Shown: positions 8,191-54,361 of the stretch, one piece after another
Layout: each line of letters begins with the position of its first letter
How positions within the stretch are numbered: the stretch's first letter is position 1
Source: Escherichia coli
Lineage (GTDB): Bacteria > Pseudomonadota > Gammaproteobacteria > Enterobacterales > Enterobacteriaceae
Reading direction: 5' to 3' (one strand)
DNA length: 64,000 bases
NCBI RefSeq assembly: GCF_024700885.2
Contig: NZ_CP117014.1
Translations under genes and position numbers: made by a program
The notes under the pieces: generated by a model
Seen by the model: only the letters and a program-made list of their open reading frames with translations
Told to the model about the DNA's origin: nothing
The model's database searches: none

Positions 8191-8348
8191 GGTTAAGCCC
8201 TAAATTCGGGCGCGGCGTGAAGGTTCTTTTGACGGGATAACAATACCTACTTTGTGATTTAGTCAATAGGTTTAGTAAAATAAAATCTATTAACACTCAT
8301 GTTGTTATGTGATTTAATTTTAGTTTTCTAACACAAATCATTAGAGTT

Positions 8349-18803: not shown

Positions 18804-18845
18804 CATTTGTGTTAGAAAATACGCGTTAATTATCTAACACAAATG
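18804..18845. promoter_or_regulatory. operator-like dyad GTTAGA-N16-TCTAAC upstream of rdgC-dmt
   Basis: A perfect 13-bp inverted repeat, CATTTGTGTTAGA (18804-18816) / TCTAACACAAATG (18833-18845), in the intergenic region. Confidence 0.5.
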
Positions 18846-40751: not shown

Positions 40752-42272
40752 ATGACCACTATTACCAAAGAACGTATTGAATTGTTCATTAAAAATCCGC
40801 TTGAAAACGGGCTTACCCGTGGTGAACAAATGGAACTGGCACGGATTGCGCTGGCATCGCTGGAAGCAGATCCAGTTAAACGAGTTAACTCAGATCAGAT
40901 GCGCCGAGTCTGCTTAGAAGCTAATCGCCATTTAGATAAATATGACGCGATGGCGAAAGAGGTAAATAAGTTGCTTGGACGCATCGCCCCGCCAGCGCCG
41001 GTAGTGCCGGAAGAAGCAACTCCGGAAAACGTAGAAATGCTCTCTGGCTATGTTTCCACGTACAAATTAACCGATAGCGAGCGCGATATTGCTGCCGAAA
41101 TATGGAACGCCTGCCGCACCGCCATGCTTCAGTCCGGAAACTTTCGGGAAAGCAAGAATTCGTCAACCAATAATTTTCGGGAAATCGCGGAAACGTCAAC
41201 CAACTATCCGGTAATTCCTAGTGAGGTGTTGTCAGCAATCCTGAAGTTTGCCAGAGTTCGTGCCGATTTCGATGATTTTGACGGTGACAGGCGAGGTATC
41301 GGTGATTGTCTGGATGAGGCCGAGCAAGAGCTTATCGTTACCATTAACAAATATGCCAGTCAGTTGGCAGCAGAACCGATAGCGACTAATGACGTTCGAG
41401 AGCAAACAGCCGTTCCGCCAATACAGGCTGATGTCGCGCAAGCAATTGAAAATCTCAAGCAGAAGTTAGTGGAATGCAATCGCTATAACTACTGCGCAGA
41501 TGCAGTTAAAGGCGTAGAGGATGCCAGCCGCGTCTTGGCACTCCAAAATCAAAATATGTCAGCACCGGTAACGCCGGAGGCCATTGAAAACGCAATTGAA
41601 TATATCCGCAGTATCGCTTTTCACATCGATGAAGACGATTACCACGGCAAGCATATTGCGTATTTCATGCGACAAGCATTGGCCTGGCTGGAAGGGCATT
41701 CATGCAGCGACGACAGGCTGGGTAAGGCCGACAATCAACCCGCATCTGGTAACCAGTCTGCCGAATCCAATCGCGGTAATGAGTGGACCGGCAATCCTGA
41801 TATTGATAACGCCATCATCATGCTCGACCGCATAGATACGGCGGAAAGTTGCGATGATGACCGTATTGAGGCCGTTAAGGCTGTGTTGCGTAGACTGGCA
41901 GGCAACTATCCGGATATTCCGGATAGTTCGGTGCCAGCGCCAGGAAAGGGCGTCACCGGTGAACGTATCCGCATTAAGCCGCATGTTTATCGCGAACTGG
42001 TTAACCGTCTCCACGATACAGCGATCAAGTGTGCTGGCACCCAGCAATTACGAGAAAGAATTAGCCGTGTTTTGGGCGACGTTATTACACCAGATCATCA
42101 TAAACAAGCCGAGAAAAGTGGCCTGGAAAGGTGTCGCCTTGAGGCGGCATTAAACATTAAGCCGGGGCATACGCTTGGCATTATTGATGCACTATTGGTT
42201 CATAAGATGGCCAGGGCTTTATTGCCGCTGGTGGCTGAAAAGCATGAGGTGGACCATGCCAACGAAAGCTGA
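40752..42272 (+). CDS. large mosaic early protein
   Basis: 506 aa. The N terminus is paralogous to the 40066 gene. Its C-terminal KPHVYRELVNRLHDTAIKCAGTQQLRERISRVL resembles the segment APHIYRELVNALRDIAAVYHGTEQLRERLAHTI of the 33025 product. Confidence 0.5.
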   Translation: MTTITKERIELFIKNPLENGLTRGEQMELARIALASLEADPVKRVNSDQMRRVCLEANRHLDKYDAMAKEVNKLLGRIAPPAPVVPEEATPENVEMLSGYVSTYKLTDSERDIAAEIWNACRTAMLQSGNFRESKNSSTNNFREIAETSTNYPVIPSEVLSAILKFARVRADFDDFDGDRRGIGDCLDEAEQELIVTINKYASQLAAEPIATNDVREQTAVPPIQADVAQAIENLKQKLVECNRYNYCADAVKGVEDASRVLALQNQNMSAPVTPEAIENAIEYIRSIAFHIDEDDYHGKHIAYFMRQALAWLEGHSCSDDRLGKADNQPASGNQSAESNRGNEWTGNPDIDNAIIMLDRIDTAESCDDDRIEAVKAVLRRLAGNYPDIPDSSVPAPGKGVTGERIRIKPHVYRELVNRLHDTAIKCAGTQQLRERISRVLGDVITPDHHKQAEKSGLERCRLEAALNIKPGHTLGIIDALLVHKMARALLPLVAEKHEVDHANES

Positions 42273-42540
42273 ATTACAGGTGCGCGTAGATGAGCTTGAA
42301 AAAGAGAACGCGAGCCTCAAAAAAATGCTGTCGCGGGCGGAAAGGGAATTATCAGGCAAATTATTGCCAGAAGAACTGCCACCAGCAGATATACCTGATC
42401 GAGTGTCCTGGTGGATGAAGTATTTCCGTGCACCGTGGGAGGCGTTTTGGTGCTACGACCATCGCAGATGGTGTGATGAGCTTGATAGCAGTTTCCCCTA
42501 TTTTGCAGAAGGGAACTCTTGCCCTGAATGTAGGCGTTAA
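42256..42540 (+). CDS. hypothetical coiled-coil/Cys-His protein (tandem paralog 1)
   Basis: Starts MPTKAELQ after a gaggtgg RBS. The C-terminal module is PWEAFWCYDHRRWCDELDSSFPYFAEGNSCPECRR. Confidence 0.45.
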   Translation: MPTKAELQVRVDELEKENASLKKMLSRAERELSGKLLPEELPPADIPDRVSWWMKYFRAPWEAFWCYDHRRWCDELDSSFPYFAEGNSCPECRR

Positions 42541-42845
42541 TGATGACCGGCGAGCTTTATTTTAAAATGGCACGGGAGCGGCGTGTGCATCTGGATCGGA
42601 TATTTCATCTCCAGAAGAGAGTAGAAGAACTGGAACGTCGTCTGAACTGTTATCCTGTTGATATGGTGTCTGCAATACCGCCGATTCCAATAGAAATGCA
42701 GATCCGCCTATGGATGGAAGAATATGGAATGCCGTGGGAGATATTTTTCTGCTTCGACCATAAACAGTGGGTAGATGAGCTGGATAATAGTTTCCCATAT
42801 TTCACAGAGAACACATGCCCAGTATGCAGGAAGAACGGAATATGA
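42540..42845 (+). CDS. hypothetical coiled-coil/Cys-His protein (tandem paralog 2)
   Basis: The C-terminal module PWEIFFCFDHKQWVDELDNSFPYFTENTCPVCRK is paralogous to that of the previous gene. Confidence 0.45.
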   Translation: MMTGELYFKMARERRVHLDRIFHLQKRVEELERRLNCYPVDMVSAIPPIPIEMQIRLWMEEYGMPWEIFFCFDHKQWVDELDNSFPYFTENTCPVCRKNGI

Positions 42846-44890: not shown

Positions 44891-45270
44891 TGAGGCATAT
44901 ATCACCGGAAGAACTTATTGCGCTTCATGATGCGAATATAAGCCGCTACGGCGGCCTGCCGGGAATGTCAGATCCGGGTAGGGCAGAGGCCATTATCGGG
45001 AGAGTTCAGGCCAGAGTTGCCTACGAAGAGATCACCGACCTTTTCGAAGTCTCCGCCACCTACCTGGTGGCTACGGCGAGAGGGCATATATTCAATGATG
45101 CCAATAAGCGTACCGCGCTAAACAGTGCGCTGCTATTTCTACGCCGTAACGGTATACAGGTATATGATGATCCCGTGCTGGTGGAGCTTGCAGTGGGGGC
45201 TGCAACTGGTGAAATCCCCGTATCTTCAGTAGCGAAAAAACTACGTGAACTATATGGTTCCAATATTTGA
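44890..45270 (+). CDS. doc: Doc toxin (Fic-fold kinase)
   Basis: [34 protein letters not shown] contains the Fic-type motif H-x-F-x-D-A-N-K-R. From memory it matches P1 Doc. Confidence 0.95.
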
Positions 45271-45271
45271 A

Positions 45272-45301
45272 AAGAAGCCCGCTCAACCAGGCGGGCTTCT
45301 T
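45272..45301. terminator. bidirectional hairpin terminator after doc
   Basis: AAGAAGCCCGC-tcaaccag-GCGGGCTTCTT (11-bp stem), sitting between convergent genes. Confidence 0.6.
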
Positions 45302-45305
45302 ACTA

Positions 45306-46400
45306 TCACTCAATGATTTTTTCTGCTGTCAGCCAGCTAATTTCTTGCCTGTCTTTCGGCGGTTTTAGCATGTGGGCGTATTCAGCGACATTCTCCCACG
45401 GAATTGTTTTTGCCCACTCAACGATAGCATTGTGATCTGCAGTGAAGAGTGGAATGGTGTGCGATTTCAACCATTCTAATGTCGTGACGCCATGTTTTTT
45501 GGCGTGGTGCTGCGCATGATGCCGGGCTATCACTCGTAATGGTATTGTCCATTCACTACCATCAGGCATCGAAAAGCGCATTGTCTTCGGCATATCTGAT
45601 TCAAGAACAGCCTCCCTAATACCAGGGAACTCACCAAGAATCATACGACGATAGTCATCACTATTTCGCCCGCCATACCTTTCGGCAAAATGATCAAGAT
45701 ATTCTTGGGTAATAAATGGTGAATCCTCCGCACTCAGCTTAATGGCTTTATATACACCACTCGGATTATCTTCAGCTAAAGCACGTCCATGATGTGAATC
45801 ATAAAAAAAGCCTATTTCCTCTGGTGACGGAATTGAAGTGAGCAATATGCGTGAATCACCACTAGTCATGCTTGCCCACACAATGCTGTATGCCCGATCG
45901 CTGATATGTGCGGAATCCACAATAATGAATAAAAGATGGTCGGCGTAGTGACCTGCAATGCTATCTTCATAGTTAAGGCGGAAGTTACAAAAGCACATTC
46001 CCCAAAATTCATTGAACATCAGACCGCTATCACCGACCTTAAAATACTCAATGATAAAAGGTTGTTTTTTCAGCAATGCCTCCCAACATTGCCACACATA
46101 TGCAACAATTCCTCTTTTGCAAACATTTGATTTTGGATAAACAATTACTGTCCGGGAATCAGGATACATAATCGTATAAAGGGTACTAATAACAGCAAGC
46201 ACTTGCGGTCGTCCGATCCCATACGGAGTGGTGACAGTAGCTTTTGCATTATTGGGCTGTATAGCTTCAACAATTTGTTGTTGCTGGTGGCTTAAATCAA
46301 TATCAAACAATTCTTTTGCTGCCAGTACCCAATTGTCTTTATATTTCTCCACCAGCGACAGCCAGCGCGGATCTTTATAAATATTGCTCTTAGTCGCCAT
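45306..46400 (-). CDS. terminase large-subunit (PacB) ATPase-domain paralog with degenerate Walker motifs, no nuclease domain
   Basis: The likely start is MATKSNIY at 46400 (RBS aaggaag). It aligns to the PacB-like protein of this window (DPRW, SHQQQQI, FYDSHH, SPF.T, GEFP). Walker A GHGTGKSS is replaced by PYGIGRPQ, and Walker B LILDEAS by IIVDSAH. Confidence 0.6.
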   Translation of the reverse strand: MATKSNIYKDPRWLSLVEKYKDNWVLAAKELFDIDLSHQQQQIVEAIQPNNAKATVTTPYGIGRPQVLAVISTLYTIMYPDSRTVIVYPKSNVCKRGIVAYVWQCWEALLKKQPFIIEYFKVGDSGLMFNEFWGMCFCNFRLNYEDSIAGHYADHLLFIIVDSAHISDRAYSIVWASMTSGDSRILLTSIPSPEEIGFFYDSHHGRALAEDNPSGVYKAIKLSAEDSPFITQEYLDHFAERYGGRNSDDYRRMILGEFPGIREAVLESDMPKTMRFSMPDGSEWTIPLRVIARHHAQHHAKKHGVTTLEWLKSHTIPLFTADHNAIVEWAKTIPWENVAEYAHMLKPPKDRQEISWLTAEKIIE

Positions 46401-47157
46401 CTGCCACTTCCTTAACTTCTTCTTTGGCCTGTTCTGCAATCGCCGCACGGCATTTCGCCCTGGCTGTAGCGATTGCTTCAGCTCGCACATCGTCTGGAAT
46501 CGTTGACGTGATATACATATCCAGTTCTTCGGCACGGAATACTGTTTGGTCCAGATATTCGCGTAGCATCCAGGTAAATTCGAAATCACACGCGATAATC
46601 TCTGCGCTACCTTCTGCACCATTTGGGAAATGAATAAATGCCTGTTTAGCCAAACCGATAACACGACATGCGGTTGCCAAAACAGCGACAACTAGGTTTA
46701 CATTTTCACACGCTACGGGCTGGTTAACGCCGGAGATTACTCCATTTAACTGTCGGTTATATGGAAGGTAGTTTGAGATGCGTTCTACGCGCCATGTGCC
46801 AGTCAGGCTGCCATTTTTAAATATAATTGGTGTAACGGATAGCCCAAGCTCGCGTATAAGTCGTTGCGCTATAGCAGGATCATTAAACAGGTCTAATGCT
46901 ACACATTCGAAAGACTGCGCAAGGGCAAACAGTTCTTCCAGAGAGTAGTCTTTGCCCCTGGCGGTGATGTAACGACGAACGCCGCTGTCTGCATCACTCC
47001 ATATAGCTACGCCATGCTCTTCATTCAGCTCTTCATTAAAGCCGAGATACGTCATGATAGTGCGTTCAATCGTGTCAAACGGCAGTGACATGTCGGCGTT
47101 AACAGCCACCAGCAGGCCATTACGCAAGCGGTATTGAATTGTTTTAGTGCTTTCCAT
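46390..47157 (-). CDS. hypothetical protein
   Basis: 255-aa ORF overlapping the downstream start by 11 nt. Confidence 0.4.
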   Translation of the reverse strand: MESTKTIQYRLRNGLLVAVNADMSLPFDTIERTIMTYLGFNEELNEEHGVAIWSDADSGVRRYITARGKDYSLEELFALAQSFECVALDLFNDPAIAQRLIRELGLSVTPIIFKNGSLTGTWRVERISNYLPYNRQLNGVISGVNQPVACENVNLVVAVLATACRVIGLAKQAFIHFPNGAEGSAEIIACDFEFTWMLREYLDQTVFRAEELDMYITSTIPDDVRAEAIATARAKCRAAIAEQAKEEVKEVADGD

Positions 47158-47163
47158 GTCAAA

Positions 47164-47604
47164 TCACTCCACAACAAACCAGTCACAGGCCAGCAGGTCG
47201 CCAACTGAAGGCACCCACGGAACAACTACACCTTGTGCATTTTTTAAGGCGAAATAAGCACCATACGGAACGAGGTCGCCGGGGAAATATCCCTTAATGG
47301 CTTCCATTCGTGCCGGGTACTGTCCTTCAGGAACCAGCCAGCAGAATTGGTTTTCGCCGTTCCACCCGCGTCGAGCAACTTTCTTGCCTTCCTTCAGCCA
47401 CATCAGCGCGTCTGAAAAGTCGGCTGCTTCAAGGTCGATTTCTTCTTGCTGGGTGGTGATGCCACCAGCAGAAATAGTTACGCTCCCGGTAAGATTAATC
47501 ATCACGCCGTTGTCATCCGTAATGATGACCGTGGTTCCATTTTTTTTGTGAGCTTTGTATTTGGGACGGAACTTAAAAAGCTCTTTCGTTGCCATGTTAT
47601 TCAT
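47164..47604 (-). CDS. DUF2829-domain protein (Tad2-family-like) with N-terminal extension
   Basis: The C-terminal FSDALMWLKEGKKVARRGWNGENQFCWLV...YFALKNAQGVVVPWVPSVGDLLACDWFVVE fits the DUF2829 pattern (F..AL..lK.GkkvaR.gWng ... W.ps..DllA.DW). Confidence 0.6.
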   Translation of the reverse strand: MNNMATKELFKFRPKYKAHKKNGTTVIITDDNGVMINLTGSVTISAGGITTQQEEIDLEAADFSDALMWLKEGKKVARRGWNGENQFCWLVPEGQYPARMEAIKGYFPGDLVPYGAYFALKNAQGVVVPWVPSVGDLLACDWFVVE

Positions 47605-47618
47605 AGTCTTTTCTCTGC

Positions 47619-48113
47619 TTATAACTTTTCGTACTGAAGCGGTGAACGCTTAATTTCAAAGTGGCCTTCCGATGTGCTACCAAAGCCACCAGCACCACGC
47701 TCCGTTTCGTTGAGTTCCTCAACCTCGACTAGTGAGACTTGTTCAACACGCTCAAAAATTCCTTGCATGACAGCCATTCCAGGCTTGAGACAAACGCCTT
47801 CCCCGCCGGGATCAGTAATCAGTTTTGCCATGATTTCGCCGCGATAATCGGAGTCGATAATTCCTACGCAGTTAGCCAGGCGAGTATGTTTTTTGCAGCC
47901 CAATCCTGATCGCGGATAGAGTTTCAGACACCAGCCGGGCGGGATCTCCATAGCCAGTCCGGTATACACCCACCAGCTTGAGGAAATTGCACCATTGCTA
48001 TCGACGCATGGTTTTATTTCAACAGCCTCAAAATCCATCGCCGCCGATCCGGAGGTGGCATAAGCTGGAAGTTTTGCTGCCGGATGTAGGCGTTTCACTT
48101 TTACGTAAATCAT
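47619..48113 (-). CDS. dut: trimeric dUTPase
   Basis: Motifs present: SAAMDF, PRSGL, GIIDSDYRGEI, RGAGGFGST. Confidence 0.85.
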   Translation of the reverse strand: MIYVKVKRLHPAAKLPAYATSGSAAMDFEAVEIKPCVDSNGAISSSWWVYTGLAMEIPPGWCLKLYPRSGLGCKKHTRLANCVGIIDSDYRGEIMAKLITDPGGEGVCLKPGMAVMQGIFERVEQVSLVEVEELNETERGAGGFGSTSEGHFEIKRSPLQYEKL

Positions 48114-48592
48114 TGTTTTTTAGCTCTCTGCGTGAAGGTGTAAACCCGACGTTTGATATGTGGAACGGTAGGAACAGGAAGACAGGAACTTTCAATAACT
48201 CCTTGCTCATCCAGCGATCGCACCGCCCGCAAGAACTGCGACGTGTCGCCGCCAAACTGGCGGGCATAGGTGCTGCCGTTATGAAGTATTTGAGCTATTA
48301 CCCGAGTTTTTGTCTGGCTGTCACGATATGCGAATAGCCGCACGGCCTCTTCTGGCGCAATCGCTAACTGATAGCCTTTCCCGGCACGGTGTCGAATGAA
48401 TCCATGCGCCAGTAGGTTTTTGAGTTCGTTACGAGTGCGAACAGATCCGTAACCCAGGAAGTGTGGATTGATAACGACTGGCTTAAACCATTCCGTAGGT
48501 GCTTTAGCTAATAGAGCTAACAGCTTCCCGGATAATTCTGGATAGGAAGACGGGTAACAATTCAGAGATGGGTAATAAGTTTTCACCGACAC
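48110..48592 (-). CDS. hypothetical protein
   Basis: 160-aa ORF with a 4-nt overlap with dut. Confidence 0.4.
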   Translation of the reverse strand: MSVKTYYPSLNCYPSSYPELSGKLLALLAKAPTEWFKPVVINPHFLGYGSVRTRNELKNLLAHGFIRHRAGKGYQLAIAPEEAVRLFAYRDSQTKTRVIAQILHNGSTYARQFGGDTSQFLRAVRSLDEQGVIESSCLPVPTVPHIKRRVYTFTQRAKKQ

Positions 48593-48927
48593 CCCCTTGC
48601 AGGATATCGACCGGCATTAGTATCCGGTGCAATAAAGCCGGTAGTGGGGCGAGTGAAAGCGAGATTAATCTTCTCGACCATAGTGCGATAATTTTCCTGA
48701 TAGTGGGCCAGGAGTTTTTCGGCGGCAATGATGGTTACTTTCCGGACGTAGCTTTCTGCTTCCTCCAGATTTCGCCAGTTTTTTTCGAGGGTAAACACAG
48801 GGACGGCCTCAAGCCCGGTCATGATGCCGAACACAACGACAGCATGACTGTTCTTAACACCAGCGGCGAAGGTTACGGTGTAACCATCCACCTTGAAGCG
48901 TCTTGATTCCGTGATTTGACTCTGCAA
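48583..48927 (-). CDS. hypothetical protein (first gene of the dut operon)
   Basis: 114 aa. TTG start after a taggaggg RBS. An operator-like box GTGTTAGAAATTT lies at 48985-48997 upstream. Confidence 0.4.
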   Translation of the reverse strand: MQSQITESRRFKVDGYTVTFAAGVKNSHAVVVFGIMTGLEAVPVFTLEKNWRNLEEAESYVRKVTIIAAEKLLAHYQENYRTMVEKINLAFTRPTTGFIAPDTNAGRYPARGCR

Positions 48928-49000
48928 AGCACCCTCCTAAATAGGCGAGGGTACTTTACAGCAAAGGCGTTAATCTAAAAAGATGTGTTAGAAATTTAAT

Positions 49001-50029
49001 TTACGAATCCATCAGGCGGCTATTAGCCCCCACAGACACGCCGCCACGGCGAAGATACCGCATAAGTGTTTCCGGTTTCTTCCAGGTTCCTTCCTGCATG
49101 ATCTCCACCATAGACACCTGCTTTTCAGCCATATCAATAGCGGCCCCGACGCGTGCACTATGCCCGGTCCACGTCCGGTATCTTCCTTTGTTTGGCGTAG
49201 CATCTCTTTTATTCAGCAACACCCAGGCGTCGCTGAATATTTTCTCCATTGCAGGTGCAGTAAGGGGCGTTGTCGTGATCCTGGCCTTATTGCTACGGTG
49301 TATCGGCGGGAACAGCACTGCGTCAGGATGTTCGCGAAGCCCGGAAACATCCAGCCAGTCATTCAGCACAGCGGTAGTGCGACGGGAAAGCACCTTATCA
49401 AGCCCGGCGGCGGTCGTTATTGTCTTCGTGTGTGAAATATGTAGCGTGACAGTGTCACCTGTTTGATCCAGATCTCCTACACGAATACGCGAGATTTCCG
49501 ACATACGCATCAGCGTATTGTATGCAACAAAGAGAAAAGCCCGGTTGCGCAGGTCCACCAGCCGTTCTGACCTGGACAACAGGACGTCGAGCAGTTTCAG
49601 ATCGTCCCACCGAAGCGGTATAGCCTGGCCTGTTCGTTCGCCTTTTTCAGTTGCCGCTTCGCGCCGGATGCGCCGCATAGCCAGAGAAACACTTTTATCA
49701 TCCGAAAGTGGCGGAAGGCCACAATGCGAAAGCAGCATATTCAGCATGGCGTAGTGCTTATCAATGGTGGTCGAAGCCAGATCGGCATCATGCAGCTGAA
49801 GAAAATACTCGCGGGCCATTTCTGGTGAGATCGGAAACCAGGCAAGCTGGCGAGCGTGACACCAGCGCGCCCATGAATGAAACACCAACCGGAGGTCGCG
49901 CAGAGTATTCGGCGCATAAGCCCCCTGGTCATTCATGAACCGCATAAAGTTTTCTGCAGCCTCCTGGTACTCTTTGCCAATGTTGCGCAGAAAACCACCG
50001 GAGCTGCCAGAGATAATTAATTCACTCAT
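49001..50029 (-). CDS. dre: Dre tyrosine site-specific recombinase (Cre family)
   Basis: 342 aa. MSELIISGSSGGFLRNIGKEYQEAAENFMRFMNDQGAYAPNTLRDL... matches my memory of phage D6 Dre. The cognate rox site lies upstream. Confidence 0.9.
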   Translation of the reverse strand: MSELIISGSSGGFLRNIGKEYQEAAENFMRFMNDQGAYAPNTLRDLRLVFHSWARWCHARQLAWFPISPEMAREYFLQLHDADLASTTIDKHYAMLNMLLSHCGLPPLSDDKSVSLAMRRIRREAATEKGERTGQAIPLRWDDLKLLDVLLSRSERLVDLRNRAFLFVAYNTLMRMSEISRIRVGDLDQTGDTVTLHISHTKTITTAAGLDKVLSRRTTAVLNDWLDVSGLREHPDAVLFPPIHRSNKARITTTPLTAPAMEKIFSDAWVLLNKRDATPNKGRYRTWTGHSARVGAAIDMAEKQVSMVEIMQEGTWKKPETLMRYLRRGGVSVGANSRLMDS

Positions 50030-50181
50030 GAAACTATTTAACCTCTATATACAGATAACGCTACGCGAAAAATATAAAAATGACAGGGTAGCTATAAGTT
50101 AATTTTCAAGATTCAAGCCTTTGATTCGAGGCGCGTATTTTCAGTGATGTCAATACTGATCATCTACCCATAATTATAGCC

Positions 50182-50213
50182 TAACTTTAAATAATGCCAA
50201 TTATTTAAAGTTA
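50182..50213. other. rox: rox recombination site
   Basis: Exact TAACTTTAAATAAT-GCCA-ATTATTTAAAGTTA: 14-bp inverted arms around a 4-bp spacer. Confidence 0.9.
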
Positions 50214-50423
50214 TAAAATGCCGATTTTTTTTAATCCATCATAGATTGATGATGACCAGTAACACGTTGCCTTCATGGTCTTTAATTTGCGAAGTGTGGT
50301 TTCTACGGTTGGTTTTCTAAAATTGATGACAAAAAATCACAGTTCGATCCTTTACTCACTCTGTTATTCGACATAAATTTGTCATAGTAATTTTATGTTA
50401 GAAAACTAAATCGAGTAGGAATA

Positions 50424-51461
50424 ATGAGTAAGAAGTCGATCGAGAAAGAGTACAAACGGTTCCTGCAAACCGCTGAACGGTGGAAAGAGCTGGTGGTCGC
50501 AAACTCTGTTTTCCATGATACCAGTTATGCTGGCGAGGAATTCCGCCATGTTGCATTAACGCATGACCAAAACATATTAGAAGAAGCTGAAAAATGTCTT
50601 GCTGAATGGAAAGCCTTCGTTGACATGTGCCGCGATGCCGACGGCAAAGCGTCGAACATTGTTGAGTCTGTATATTCTCCGATCCCATTCATCATTGAGG
50701 ACACCAATCAAAGCACGCATGTCGTTGTGCAAAGCGCTACAACAACACGTACATTTACACGTGAACAATTGCTAAAAAAATACGACAAAATCATAAAGAA
50801 AAGCCTTAAAAATAGGGTTTTTTCTCAAATCGTAGGTGATCTTGAAGAAGAACAGCGCTTCTTTGAAGCTGAGCCTGAAGGCGAGATCTACCGGGCGCGT
50901 AAAGAGGCATATACAGATGTTGTGCTGACAACAAACATCGAAGGCAGCAATGCCCTTTCTCGCTTTAGAGTTGGCGCACATGGTGCATTGGTTTTCGCAA
51001 GACTACCGAAGACAACGATCCCCGTTGTCAATAATGTTGGTGAACGCCGGAGCATTACAATTTATTCTGGCGTCGAATCGGTACCTTGCAGCCTTCTCGG
51101 CGATTTTAACTTATATCGTGTTCGTGACCTGGAAAAACACCAGCCAAGCTATGTTGCGAAGTCGTACATCTTAAGGAACATCGATATTCGCAATGAAAGC
51201 CTTAAGCAGAAATCCGCTAAGATGCTGGAGGATGCCGATCCGGCTATTCGCCATATCATTGAGCGTAAGATACGTACATCACGTGAAGCAATGGCAAGGC
51301 TGGATAAAATGGATCTGGAATTGTTAGACGTAATGATGGCCTCTGGAGACGACCTGACCGGCATTAAACTGAATGAAGCTCGTAAAAAATACGGCAAAGC
51401 AATCGAAGAACGTTACGGATACACATTCCCCCAAACGCAGTACGCCGCGAAGCTCTGGTAA
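50424..51461 (+). CDS. hypothetical protein at the position of P1 c1 (candidate master repressor)
   Basis: 345-aa ORF convergent with pacB, as c1 is in P1. The operator-like box ATGTTAGAAAACTA (50395-50408) lies just upstream. I saw no sequence similarity to P1 C1. Confidence 0.45.
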   Translation: MSKKSIEKEYKRFLQTAERWKELVVANSVFHDTSYAGEEFRHVALTHDQNILEEAEKCLAEWKAFVDMCRDADGKASNIVESVYSPIPFIIEDTNQSTHVVVQSATTTRTFTREQLLKKYDKIIKKSLKNRVFSQIVGDLEEEQRFFEAEPEGEIYRARKEAYTDVVLTTNIEGSNALSRFRVGAHGALVFARLPKTTIPVVNNVGERRSITIYSGVESVPCSLLGDFNLYRVRDLEKHQPSYVAKSYILRNIDIRNESLKQKSAKMLEDADPAIRHIIERKIRTSREAMARLDKMDLELLDVMMASGDDLTGIKLNEARKKYGKAIEERYGYTFPQTQYAAKLW

Positions 51462-51470
51462 TCACAACCG

Positions 51471-51490
51471 GCCCCGCATCGCGGGGCTTT
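51471..51490 (+). terminator. rho-independent terminator
   Basis: GCCCCGC-atc-GCGGGGC followed by TTT. Confidence 0.55.
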
Positions 51491-52997
51491 ATATATCCAG
51501 ATCCGGCATTTCGATATCCGCCAGAACCTGATCTCGGAAAGTTGCCATTTCGGCACCAATATCTTCATTAGCAGGCACATAGTCCACCAGCATAGTGAAG
51601 CAGTAGGTATCCCATCGGTCAGGCGATTTGATGTTTAGCTTTTGCCGCATGTGCTCTTTGCGCATCATCGCCATTTTCCCTTCTTCATTCAGTAAAAAGG
51701 GGATTTTTGACGCTTGCTCTGCCGTTTTAGGGTCACTGTCTATCCGCATACGCCCTGACTTTATGGCATCACGCGCCATAATGTTTGCGTAGGCACGCTG
51801 ATTAACAAATCGCTCCCTGTCTTTGTTCGCAAACATGGGTTTTCCCCACCGAATACGTACCGGGTTCGCACCACGACGCACCAACTGCGCACACGTATCA
51901 GAACCAAAACCATCAGCATCAACCGCGATTGTTATATTCGGGTATTTTTCCGGCGTACATTCGTTATATATGAAGTCAGCAAAGGCCAATGGGTCCATAG
52001 TGCCAGGCATCTCCATTACCTTAAAGTTAACAACGCGCCGCTTATCCCTGTGACCTGATACCTTGCAGATGTTGAGGACCGACTTATCTCGCCCATTACC
52101 AACGTCAGCCGTTGCCACCCATCCCCAGTTTTTCTCCAACAACACCTTGCGGCGAGCAGAGCGATCGCATTCATCACGACCAAGCAAATAGCCGTTAATT
52201 TCTCGTGGGAACTGACCAAGCACCTTGACCATGTACTCAATAGAATCGCGCCCACCATATTCCAGAAGCTTCTCCTTGATGAATTGTGGTGTGACGAACG
52301 GTGATTCTTCCGAGTTAAGAACAATTGCTGTCCAGATCCCTTTCGGGTTGTCTGGGGTTTTTGCTCGAGAATGGTGCGAATCGTAGAAATAACCACTTGG
52401 CCTTGTTGGCTGGGATAGCATCAACATCCGGTTATCTTCTTCAGTAAGAGCACCGGTCATTACGCCGATCGCCTTATCAGATATACCAGATGCTTCATCC
52501 AGAATTAGAAGCAAATGTGCCGCGTGTTCCCCCGCCAGCGCTTCTTCGTTGCCGAGTCGATAACCTTTGCAGAGAACTTCCCAAATCCCCTTACGGGAGC
52601 GCTCATAAAACATGGTGTCAGAGAGGACAAAATAGGTCTGCAACCACCCATGACGCTTAACTGCATTCGCCCAATACTGTTTAACGTATTTGAATACGCC
52701 TGTTTTTACCTGGCCTATCTTGTTAGCAACAATGATGACACGGGCATCGGGGAACAGGATCATAAAAATCAACAGCAACATCGCGGTAAGGGACGACTTC
52801 CCCGTTCCGTGTCCGGACGTGACGGTCGTCCTACTCCCCGTTTCCTGCACTGACTGAATGATCTGCTGCTGCTGGTGGGAGGGGAACATCCCAAAAATAT
52901 CGACTACAGCCTGGGTAAAGTTGTAGCGGTATTTGATTACCATATCGCGCCAGCGTGGATCGCTGGTGACGCATTTAATCTTGCGCCCGCCAGCCAT
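51489..52997 (-). CDS. pacB: terminase large subunit (PacB type)
   Basis: 502 aa with Walker A SGHGTGKSS and Walker B LLLILDEAS plus a C-terminal nuclease-sized domain. It overlaps the pacA stop. Confidence 0.85.
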   Translation of the reverse strand: MAGGRKIKCVTSDPRWRDMVIKYRYNFTQAVVDIFGMFPSHQQQQIIQSVQETGSRTTVTSGHGTGKSSLTAMLLLIFMILFPDARVIIVANKIGQVKTGVFKYVKQYWANAVKRHGWLQTYFVLSDTMFYERSRKGIWEVLCKGYRLGNEEALAGEHAAHLLLILDEASGISDKAIGVMTGALTEEDNRMLMLSQPTRPSGYFYDSHHSRAKTPDNPKGIWTAIVLNSEESPFVTPQFIKEKLLEYGGRDSIEYMVKVLGQFPREINGYLLGRDECDRSARRKVLLEKNWGWVATADVGNGRDKSVLNICKVSGHRDKRRVVNFKVMEMPGTMDPLAFADFIYNECTPEKYPNITIAVDADGFGSDTCAQLVRRGANPVRIRWGKPMFANKDRERFVNQRAYANIMARDAIKSGRMRIDSDPKTAEQASKIPFLLNEEGKMAMMRKEHMRQKLNIKSPDRWDTYCFTMLVDYVPANEDIGAEMATFRDQVLADIEMPDLDI

Positions 52998-54361
52998 TAA
53001 TCATCCTCCGGCGGTTCTATCGCGATATCATCATCTCCGGCGTCATACCCTGCATCAGATGCATCATAATCACCGTAAATTTCAGCCGTTGCCGAAGGGT
53101 CAATATCCAGCTCTTCGTCGTTGGCCTCGAATTCTCCAGCTTTACGCTCGCCATTGCGGTCGTAATCTCCGCACCCCAATTCTTCAACAATGGTTGCCAC
53201 ATCCGCCCGGCGCTCTGCCAGCCATTGCGGATGGTTAGCCTGAAGCGTTGCAAACTCCCTTGCCTCTTTGTCCAGCTGTTCATCATCAACATCATTGACG
53301 TCAGAAACAGGTGGTTCGAGAAGAGTGATAGCTTTCGCCGCGCGCGCCGCGAGGATAGCCGGGACGCTGACACCCTGGCGCTCGATGTATTCAGCAACAC
53401 CGATATCATCCAGTTCCTCGCGCTCACGCATACGTATAGCGGCGGCGATAACTCTGGCTGCGCGTGCGTCAGCGCCAATGCGATATTCAATCTCTTTGCC
53501 ACGCTGTTCGGCCTGTAGGCGTGCTAATTCGAGTTTTTCTCTGGCCTCAGCCTCTTTGAATGCTTGCTGGCGAGCGCTCTGACGAAGCTTTTCATCCCCC
53601 TGTCGCAGCTTTTGTTCGGACTGATATATAGCTGCCAACCTACTGATAAAATCATTCATGTAGTAGGCCGCGTCACTGATTAGACCGAGAAGGCGCTGCC
53701 CAGGGTGCATTCCTTCTGGCTCTTTATCGCCCAAGGCGTCTATTTCCGCCTGTAGACGTTCGGCCTCCTGATCAACAATGCTTTGATACTGAAGTGCGCG
53801 CTCTTGCGCCATTTGAATTGCTAACCGCAGGTGTTCTTCTGCGCCGTTCTTCATCATATCGCGAGCCACATTCGTAGTTGGCAATGTGGCACGCTGCACA
53901 GCACCGTCAGGGATCATTGCAGAAGATCCCTCAATTTTTGGGGCGTTTTTATCTTCTTCGGGGATCATTTTCGCCATTTTTTCGCGCAATGATCTCCTGA
54001 CAGATTCTTTTATCTCATTGTTATTATTTGAATTATTTTCATGATCCGAAGTTTTCTTTCTCGGCATACTTCGGAAAGAACCTGCGCCCTGCGAATTGTC
54101 AATTTCTGTAAATTTTGTTTTTTCTGCACCCTCTTCCAGCTTTTTTGTTGCTCTTCCCGCCCGTTTTTTTTCAGGTGATTTGGTGCTTTTTTTTGTTGTC
54201 TTTACCTGCGACCGCACCTCATTTTTTTTCATATTGAGATGCTTTCTGGCTGTATTGAAGCTAAGGCCATGCTCCTCACAGTATTCCTTTACAGTGATCC
54301 CTTTTTCTTCACGCAACGCTATAAAGCGGGCGCGGTGCTCCTCCCAATTAACCAGACTCAT
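52997..54361 (-). CDS. pacA: terminase small/recognition subunit (PacA type)
   Basis: 454 aa. It has an N-terminal HTH-like segment (ITVKEYCEEHGLSFNTARKHL), a basic linker, a coiled middle and a highly acidic C terminus. This is the same layout as P1 PacA. Confidence 0.75.
   Translation of the reverse strand: MSLVNWEEHRARFIALREEKGITVKEYCEEHGLSFNTARKHLNMKKNEVRSQVKTTKKSTKSPEKKRAGRATKKLEEGAEKTKFTEIDNSQGAGSFRSMPRKKTSDHENNSNNNNEIKESVRRSLREKMAKMIPEEDKNAPKIEGSSAMIPDGAVQRATLPTTNVARDMMKNGAEEHLRLAIQMAQERALQYQSIVDQEAERLQAEIDALGDKEPEGMHPGQRLLGLISDAAYYMNDFISRLAAIYQSEQKLRQGDEKLRQSARQQAFKEAEAREKLELARLQAEQRGKEIEYRIGADARAARVIAAAIRMREREELDDIGVAEYIERQGVSVPAILAARAAKAITLLEPPVSDVNDVDDEQLDKEAREFATLQANHPQWLAERRADVATIVEELGCGDYDRNGERKAGEFEANDEELDIDPSATAEIYGDYDASDAGYDAGDDDIAIEPPEDD
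53912..54046. other. pac: candidate pac site: cluster of five GATC-containing hexamers inside pacA
   Basis: GATC occurs at 53912, 53925, 53963, 53991 and 54043. In gene sense the hexamers read GGATCA, AGATCA, TGATCC, GGATCT, TGATCC. P1 pac is built from TGATCA/G hexamers within pacA. Confidence 0.4.

Follow-up and report, generated by a model that had tools for sequence, protein, structure and literature searches.

Why does a prophage with a genuine large terminase also encode, in a different operon, a terminase-like protein that seems to have lost its catalytic residues? The question is raised by a 64,000-nucleotide stretch of the Escherichia coli contig NZ_CP117014.1 (hereafter the window), a D6-like plasmid prophage with a rox site and a gene for Dre recombinase (49001-50029), in which the minus strand at 45306-46400 encodes a 364-residue paralogue of PacB, the large terminase subunit (TerL). 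Among the enzymes of tailed phages none is more conserved than the large terminase, which is also a prime target for bacterial immune sensors. What appears to be new here is a catalytically dead, terminase-ATPase-like accessory protein with a new domain fusion, the nearest described proteins being T4 vs.8 and Ksap2. The gene, its parts and the enzyme it is compared with are as follows:

45306-46400, minus strand: coding sequence of the pseudo-terminase paralogue, 364 residues plus stop, from the open reading frame (ORF) and its translation; member of phrog_5902
45615-46400, minus strand: N-terminal PacB-like domain with the TerL ATPase fold, residues 1-262, catalytically degenerate, from BLASTP and Foldseek
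46203-46232, minus strand: degenerate Walker A motif TTPYGIGRPQ, residues 57-66, with Arg64 at the lysine position (TSGHGTGKSS in PacB), from alignments
45906-45938, minus strand: degenerate Walker B motif HLLFIIVDSAH, residues 155-165, with Val-Asp in place of Asp-Glu (HLLLILDEAS in PacB), from alignments
45309-45614, minus strand: C-terminal small domain, residues 263-364, beta-hairpin plus helices, consensus MPDGSxWxVP..IA.HRA..YA....T.PLF....I.DWA.NNM.W.DV
51489-52997, minus strand: genuine PacB large terminase, 502 residues, with intact SGHGTGKS and LILDEAS motifs and a C-terminal nuclease part; its gene follows directly on pacA (52997-54361); the comparator

The relationship to the PacB ATPase domain, which an initial annotation of this DNA had proposed and offered as a test of its idea, was significant: residues 7-259 of the paralogue aligned with residues 10-264 of the window PacB at 96 identities over 258 positions (37%, E 6e-57, BLASTP), and every shared block that it quoted was present (DPRW, SHQQQQI, YPDSRTVIV against FPDARVIIV, FYDSHH, EDSPFIT against EESPFVT, and YGGR..GEFP against YGGR..GQFP). 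Residues 143-265 also matched the phrog_2 terminase (E 9e-9), in agreement with a TerL-type ATPase fold. The product is 100% identical to WP_000201932.1 from the E. coli plasmid p702_18_3 and matched phrog_5902 over its full length (E 8.6e-165, its residues 4-363 aligning with positions 2-358 of a 359-position profile). Sequence-profile searches found no relative in the PDB. A full-length AlphaFold2 model built from a 7-sequence alignment reached a predicted local distance difference test (pLDDT) score of 63.6, and the best 26 PDB matches of this low-confidence model in Foldseek were all TerL ATPase domains, including Sf6 gp2, P74-26, T4 gp17, HK97, D6E and the PhiV-1 terminase bound to Avs3.

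The destruction of the catalytic motifs, likewise described earlier for the window protein, was borne out by the alignments and extends to every clade of the family. The position of the P-loop lysine is occupied by R, H, E, T or C across all five clades, and the Walker B Asp-Glu pair by VD, MD, IN, LN or PN, so that the aspartate position is hydrophobic or proline in all of them; the catalytic glutamate is retained in one aligned sequence only. These substitutions make it very unlikely that the protein is still an enzyme, a non-canonical ATPase working through a shifted lysine or other residues. Such activity would be consistent with the retention of glycines 61 and 63 (G61, G63) of the P-loop, of glutamine Q40 of the Q motif and of an S-x-P-S resembling motif III, and with the G-x-K-T/S of four of the seven aligned sequences, in which a lysine stands one residue beyond its canonical place, but the window protein has G-R-P-Q there, with neither lysine nor Ser/Thr, and the lysine position varies freely. 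The C-terminal ~240 residues of PacB (residues ~265-502) have no counterpart in the paralogue, confirming the proposed replacement of the nuclease domain; the replacement had been taken for an unrelated histidine-rich tail and is instead a conserved mobile domain, described below. Lacking the P-loop lysine, the Walker B Asp-Glu and the nuclease domain, the protein would be expected to carry out no canonical ATP hydrolysis, DNA translocation or DNA cutting.

Of the features that define a TerL, only the fold was found. The intact Walker A (GK[ST]) and Walker B (hhhhDE) motifs are replaced by GIGRPQ and IIVDSA, with the same loss in all five clades; the place of a C-terminal RNase H-like nuclease is taken by the unrelated 100-residue domain; and the late packaging module with its small terminase lies elsewhere, with the real pacA-pacB pair at 51489-54361. 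Curated terminase models gave no Pfam match (Terminase_6N) and 13 bits against a cut-off of 105 for TIGR01547, a weak test, as PacB itself scored 18.8 against 22; NCBIfam offered nothing useful for the paralogue. Judged by its sequence, the paralogue is not a terminase. Set beside the PacB proteins of P1 and D6, it has in common with them an N-terminal ATPase-fold domain at 33-37% identity, including the N-terminal helices, the Q-motif glutamine and the lid motifs FYDSHH, NPxG, E(D/E)SP, YGGR and LGxFP. PacB differs in having the P-loop lysine, the Walker B Asp-Glu and the nuclease domain and in lying in the late module beside pacA, whereas the paralogue has another C-terminal domain, sits in an early accessory operon and occurs in only part of the phage family. 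A literature search found no description of this family, of a P1 or D6 terminase paralogue, or of a terminase pseudoenzyme.

Homologues were collected by tblastn and IMG/VR scans; word-index protein searches gave just 8 close clusters, and the distant clades came from tblastn, IMG/VR and an exhaustive domain search. They comprise:

Clade 1, the window type: 98-100% identity to the window protein; on D6-like plasmids
Clade 2: 64-66% identity to the window protein; on D6-like plasmids
Clade 3, P1-type: 51% identity to the window protein; on P1-like plasmids
Clade 4, L043 (2995-4083, IMG/VR UViG_2773857937_000001): 38% identity; directly after a dnaB/ban-type helicase gene, with the small domain C-terminal
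A 263-residue protein of a Citrobacter freundii plasmid (L010 4974-5765): 38.6% identity over the ATPase domain; after ref, without the C-terminal domain
P0020 (L009 8001-8741): 29% identity over 142 aligned residues; small domain first and PacB-like part second, cut by a Tn3-family transposase

The paralogues are 33-51% identical among themselves and 33-37% identical to either PacB, D6-type or P1-type (about 40% for the C. freundii protein). The window PacB is 59% identical to P1 PacB over the ATPase domain, so that either the paralogue split is old or the paralogues evolve fast. The last three listed occupy other slots of P1-like elements. The two modules, pseudo-ATPase and small domain, have been paired recurrently, in the same order in L043 and in reverse order in P0020. 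Elsewhere in the databases the family is listed as 'hypothetical protein' (phrog_5902). Among the public entries MH422554.1, MH445380.1 and protein P0002, some phage records label the paralogue 'terminase large subunit', and one metagenomic entry uses an over-long 438-residue start; both are probable annotation errors, and the wrong label can mislead terminase-based phage typing. The transposase that cuts P0020 is encoded at L009 8738-10384.

Seven copies were examined for selection by the Nei-Gojobori method, and all had intact ORFs. The ratio of nonsynonymous to synonymous divergence (dN/dS) was 0.14-0.36 between clades, about 0.2 within clades and 0.08-0.13 in the C-terminal domain, with synonymous divergence (dS) saturated between clades, indicating on these estimates that the gene is kept by purifying selection; the possibility, raised earlier, that it might prove a pseudogene can thus be set aside. 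The same values, which hold at 0.1-0.36 across clades under saturated synonymous divergence, already contradict the view that the gene is a decaying, functionless relic of a terminase duplication, as do the 162 plasmid records and ~144 complete E. coli genomes in which a full-length match was found, a start still coupled to the upstream gene, and a terminator of its own. We therefore regard a relic as barely credible, despite the loss of the catalytic motifs, the absence of the gene from phages D6 and P1, and its interruption by insertion sequences (IS) in some plasmids. Between the window allele and a clade 2 copy (L005), dS is 1.41 for the ATPase-like part and only 0.11 for the C-terminal domain (45306-45614), which places a recombination breakpoint at the domain junction.

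Conservation is unevenly spread along the PacB-like domain. In the Walker A segment (residues 51-100) identity between paralogue and PacB falls to its lowest value, 28%, against 60% between the two PacB proteins; in the lid (residues 191-262) it reaches its highest, 46%, against 65% between the PacB proteins, and 17 of the 72 lid positions are invariant across all seven aligned sequences. Besides the lid series FYDSHH...NPxG...E(D/E)SP...YGGR...LGxFP, the paralogue keeps the Q-motif glutamine and the N-terminal helices of PacB. Catalytic positions free to vary, a lid and helices that are kept, and an added domain under constraint together point to a pseudo-enzyme that works by binding. Taking these observations together, we tentatively favour, at somewhat below an even chance, the reading that the paralogue, as a non-catalytic look-alike of the terminase ATPase domain, does its work by binding.

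What, then, is the added domain? An exhaustive HMMER search with residues 258-364 recovered 225 cluster representatives at E<=1e-3, the majority being free-standing proteins of ~100 residues, which matched down to E 5e-15; a few members are joined to a Lar-like module or to coiled-coil proteins of the DUF1351 type. The window domain matched phrog_17928, whose C-terminus is this domain, at E 1.2e-14; the match covers all ~95 residues, and the positions conserved in the family (W, IA, A, T-PLF, WA, M-W and W) are present. The run of histidines is restricted to the window lineage, the family consensus at that place being IAxHRAxxYA. Modelled alone from a 58-sequence alignment, the small domain reached a pLDDT of 90.4 and is predicted to form a beta-hairpin, five helices and a short strand. 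Its BFVD matches were uncharacterised phage proteins only. No structural match was found in the PDB, where the entry 3ic3 came to E 0.11 at best, and no Pfam family was found either, DUF5076 scoring 14.2-16.9 bits against a gathering cut-off of 25. A search of the window found no second copy.

Free-standing members include JK004 gene_35, WP_061375432.1 of a Salmonella plasmid and A0A0F6TH29 of Sinorhizobium phage phiM9, and with the C-terminus of CP2 ORF36 they belong to the same family as the C-terminal 100 residues of the paralogue; they differ from it in having no terminase-like part, being ~100 residues long or fused to DUF1351 or Lar-like partners. Their neighbours raise the alternative that the protein is a replication or recombination accessory factor, in which the small domain would be the core, acting with the Ban/DnaB helicase or with recombination proteins, and the dead ATPase fold a DNA- or protein-binding scaffold. 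In Cronobacter phage JK004 and in a P1-like plasmid of Salmonella, dnaB is followed directly by a free-standing copy, and the L043 fusion likewise follows such a gene; another copy lies beside RecE and an SMC-like ATPase in Bordetella phage PHB04; the small domain is fused to DUF1351 in Xanthomonas phage CP2; and further free-standing copies occur in small early-gene arrays on metagenomic phage contigs. The operon partners of the paralogue and the upstream isaA, namely ssb in the P1 type and dut in the D6 type, are in keeping with such a role. Set against this, the argument is one of gene neighbourhood in which the small domain, DUF1351 and IsaA have no known function, it leaves the conserved PacB-specific surfaces unexplained, and P1 isaA was dispensable for plaque formation in a CRISPR interference screen (PMC10695390). 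We judge this alternative unlikely.

A 98-residue free-standing protein is encoded directly downstream of the ban/dnaB-type helicase gene at L011 4004-4300 (the Salmonella plasmid) and L012 4001-4297 (JK004 gene_35), and its identity of ~80% with the C-terminal domain of the L043 protein suggests that the fusion arose there.

Returning to the look-alike acting by binding, its genetic setting bears on when it would be made and with what. In the window the gene closes a co-directional cluster, in the order two unknown ORFs, dut, a DUF2829 gene, isaA and the paralogue, which the gene map and profile matches establish much as the initial annotation had drawn it:

48984-48994, minus strand: operator-like motif TTTCTAACACA, a candidate D6-type C1 operator, upstream of the cluster
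48583-48927 and 48110-48592, minus strand: two unknown ORFs at the head of the cluster, co-directional with dut
47619-48113, minus strand: dut, Pfam dUTPase (E 1.7e-14)
47164-47604, minus strand: DUF2829/Tad2-like gene, Pfam Tad2-like (E 5.9e-23; Thoeris anti-defence 2)
46390-47157, minus strand: isaA homologue, 255 residues, phrog_2326 (E 1e-133), 48% identical to P1 IsaA; its stop overlaps the ATG of the paralogue by 11 nt
45269-45300, minus strand: hairpin terminator, GAAGCCCGC-loop-GCGGGCTTC followed by a T run, from the sequence; directly 3' of the paralogue stop and common to the convergent doc

The paralogue starts with an ATG at 46400 and stops with a TGA at 45306-45308; a longer, TTG-initiated ORF of 461 residues is also possible for the frame, and the homologues begin at an ATG or GTG whose overlap with the preceding gene's stop is 11 nt, an AAGGAAG Shine-Dalgarno sequence lying just ahead of it, inside isaA in the window. 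An isaA homologue ends at the start of the paralogue in all 24 of the 24 IMG/VR loci of clades 1-3, and by this arrangement the paralogue is predicted to be translationally coupled to isaA. IsaA is a globular 250-residue protein without any Pfam domain; PDB profile searches with it were empty, and its homologues are confined to enterobacterial P1/D6-like plasmids. Two possible identities for IsaA were discarded, that of a paralogue of the small terminase PacA, to which it shows no similarity, and that of a DUF1351-like protein, for which there was no Pfam match and which its globular form does not suit. The terminator stem is 9 bp and G+C-rich, although an automated terminator scan calls the hairpin more weakly, and the hairpin is also kept in phage D6. 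The upstream gene order is the same in D6 and related plasmids. The DUF2829/Tad2-like allele of related plasmids is longer, at 218-220 residues (L005 3545-4201; L015 1075-1737).

The motif upstream of the cluster recurs in the window. The form TTTCTAACA(C/T)A occurs at 15 sites against 2.5 expected, a number reached in none of 100 shuffles, with an extended asymmetric consensus (A/G)ATTTTAGT-TTTCTAACA(C/T)A; the sites are at 8325, 18808, 18831, 32822, 35674, 48984, 50394, 58798, 60047 and 61090, plus 5 more. One copy lies immediately upstream of a 345-residue repressor-like gene (50424-51461), and those at 18808 and 18831 form a divergent pair. The repeated motif probably represents the D6-type C1 operator set, which makes plausible the earlier statement that an operator precedes the operon; the P1 C1 operator consensus itself had no match in the window. 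The equivalent ssb-isaA operon of P1 carries an annotated C1 operator, Ossb. No sigma-70 promoter turned up in a consensus scan of the 73-bp gap that follows dre, so that read-through from a strong promoter at 50200-50173 is also possible. That near-consensus sigma-70 promoter (50173-50200, TTGGCA-16-TATAAT) points into dre, and its -35 box is overlapped by the rox site TAACTTTAAATAATTGGCATTATTTAAAGTTA at 50184-50215.

The paralogue is an accessory gene. Phage D6 is without it and has in its place a pdcA-like ORF and a different isaA 3' end; P1, also without it, has IS1 and isaB in the slot after isaA. Among complete E. coli genomes, D6-type pacB occurs in 96-99, the full-length clade-1 paralogue in 35 and clade 2 in 9, so that ~45% of D6-type plasmids there carry a paralogue; the P1-type paralogue occurs in 100, and nearly all copies are plasmid-borne. 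In PLSDB, 162 of 789 records with a PacB-like match contain a full-length paralogue (at least 80% of the query). P1-like and D6-like plasmids are found in common hosts, and in the IMG/VR loci L029-L031 the isaA and paralogue alleles are combined in mosaic fashion.

The slot itself is variable. The isaA-IS1-isaB region is the variable hot spot RD-2 of P1-like phage-plasmids (PMC6906374, PMC9603915). It resembles the present locus in that the P1-type paralogue occupies exactly the slot after isaA and the window partner gene is an isaA homologue, and it differs in that IsaB is unrelated and that the isaA-paralogue pair of the window lies in a dut-DUF2829-isaA operon beside doc. P1 IsaB was considered as a remnant of the paralogue and discarded, as there is no similarity and, in an alignment of P1 with MH422554, one sequence simply replaces the other beyond the isaA stop. 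In the P1 type the paralogue is found between isaA and hxr, next to the dar/ddr antirestriction genes, and a 98%-identical copy adjoins humD without phd-doc; the location next to phd-doc given earlier is thus true of the window, where doc is convergent, and is not conserved. Insertions recur in the slot or beside it: IS1 in P1 (L004 2127-2894), ISEc60 splitting the paralogue in the Escherichia albertii plasmid pEA13_2 (L006 5785-6975), and Tn3 in P0020. In several D6-like E. coli plasmids without the paralogue (H183-H188), the final 37-43 nt of the clade-2 gene are matched at 100%, which may be a deletion scar and is not taken as proof of an ancestral deletion; phage D6 itself shares just the terminator hairpin beyond the paralogue stop.

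From this setting a mechanism may be proposed. The paralogue would be synthesised early, from the repressor-controlled operon and with its translation coupled to that of IsaA, and would offer its PacB-like surfaces (above all the lid, but also the N-terminal helices and the Q-motif glutamine) to whatever PacB usually contacts, the candidate partners being PacA, the portal, PacB itself or a host terminase sensor, while the small C-terminal domain would provide a second contact. We infer that the protein acts by binding, and likewise which surfaces matter and who the partner is. Several points weigh against this proposal. The paralogue shows no sign of co-evolution with the resident PacB, being at the same 33-37% from the D6-type and the P1-type enzyme; the residues in common with PacB could be conserved for folding only; and the full-length model is too poor at this pLDDT to map surfaces. 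The four aligned sequences with G-x-K-T/S could still bind nucleotide in a non-canonical way. An early, accessory gene fits poorly with a role in the prophage's own late packaging, and early repressor-controlled expression together with accessory distribution argues against a core packaging regulator, one of the roles suggested earlier. Finally, the small domain and IsaA are without known function, and the interaction is a putative one.

Which partner would be bound is where two further alternatives part. The first is interference with packaging, in which a dominant-negative subunit would sequester PacA or the portal or poison PacB rings, aimed at a co-infecting or co-resident P1/D6-family phage or at the timing of the prophage's own motor. 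PacB-like helices and lid kept while the catalytic residues and the nuclease or C-terminal part are gone would suit a poison subunit; an accessory gene with several alleles and mosaic recombination is what is expected of competition genes; and the sharing of hosts by P1-like and D6-like plasmids would bring the competitors together. We nevertheless consider it rather improbable, in that the equal distance to both types of PacB gives no visible target specificity, expression is probably repressed in the lysogen, making classical superinfection exclusion unlikely, and the resident PacB would be expected to be poisoned too.

The second, which takes up the decoy idea of the initial annotation, is counter-defence, in which an early terminase look-alike would neutralise the sensors that recognise TerL (Avs1-3, Upx) or shield PacB from them. 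The timing would fit, expression being early, repressor-controlled and ahead of the late terminase, and so would the company of the gene: an operon shared with a Tad2-like anti-Thoeris domain gene, a P1-type copy beside the dar/ddr genes, and an accessory status within a hot spot already known to vary. Some sensors bind the terminase ATPase domain by itself, and the phage proteins T4 vs.8 and Ksap2 interact with them, the authors suggesting an anti-defence role (bioRxiv 10.64898/2026.04.30.721860; PMC11564622). However, Avs3 and EcAvs2 read terminase active-site residues together with bound ATP/Mg (bioRxiv 10.64898/2026.04.30.721860), all missing here, which makes binding of the canonical kind unlikely; a bound protein would normally switch such sensors on and not block them; and PADLOC-DB gave no match for the paralogue or IsaA at E<=0.1, in a library that holds models of defence systems and not anti-defence proteins. 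We hold counter-defence in this form to be improbable.

With the active site and bound ATP missing, capture by Avs sensors as a canonical decoy becomes less likely and 'invisibility' to them more likely, and selection for escape from detection could itself have brought about the loss of the motifs. On this line the paralogue would be an early 'stealth' mimic that has shed what sensors read (the active site with ATP, and the nuclease), has kept PacB-like surfaces, and blocks or diverts terminase-directed immunity (Avs1-3, Upx or other) before PacB appears. This is a speculation to which we give only a slight chance; if true, the paralogue would be the first anti-defence protein to derive from a terminase, and IsaA and the small domain would be its co-factors.

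The comparison with T4 vs.8, and more loosely with Ksap2 (bioRxiv 10.64898/2026.04.30.721860, PMC11564622), is by description. They resemble the paralogue in being an extra, lineage-restricted protein with a terminase-ATPase-like fold and no nuclease, encoded outside the packaging module. T4 vs.8 keeps Walker A and B and activates EcAvs2, whereas the paralogue has lost both motifs in every clade and has an added C-terminal domain; it also stems from the PacB lineage and not, as vs.8 does, from the T4 gp17 lineage.

A dead copy of a motor domain, kept by selection and repeatedly joined to the same small domain, amounts to a natural separation-of-function variant, which could reveal through which surfaces the ATPase domain meets the portal, the small terminase or sensors of the host. 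Of interest in its own right is the small domain, a widespread phage domain of ~100 residues (at least 225 sequence clusters) with a confidently predicted fold, no Pfam entry and no PDB relative.

Away from this operon, the adjacent small genes at 42175-42540 and 42540-42845, on the plus strand, are paralogues of each other (43% identity, E 2e-22), and both have a C-terminal W-x-F-x-C-x-D-H...FPYF...CP-x-CR motif that looks zinc-binding.

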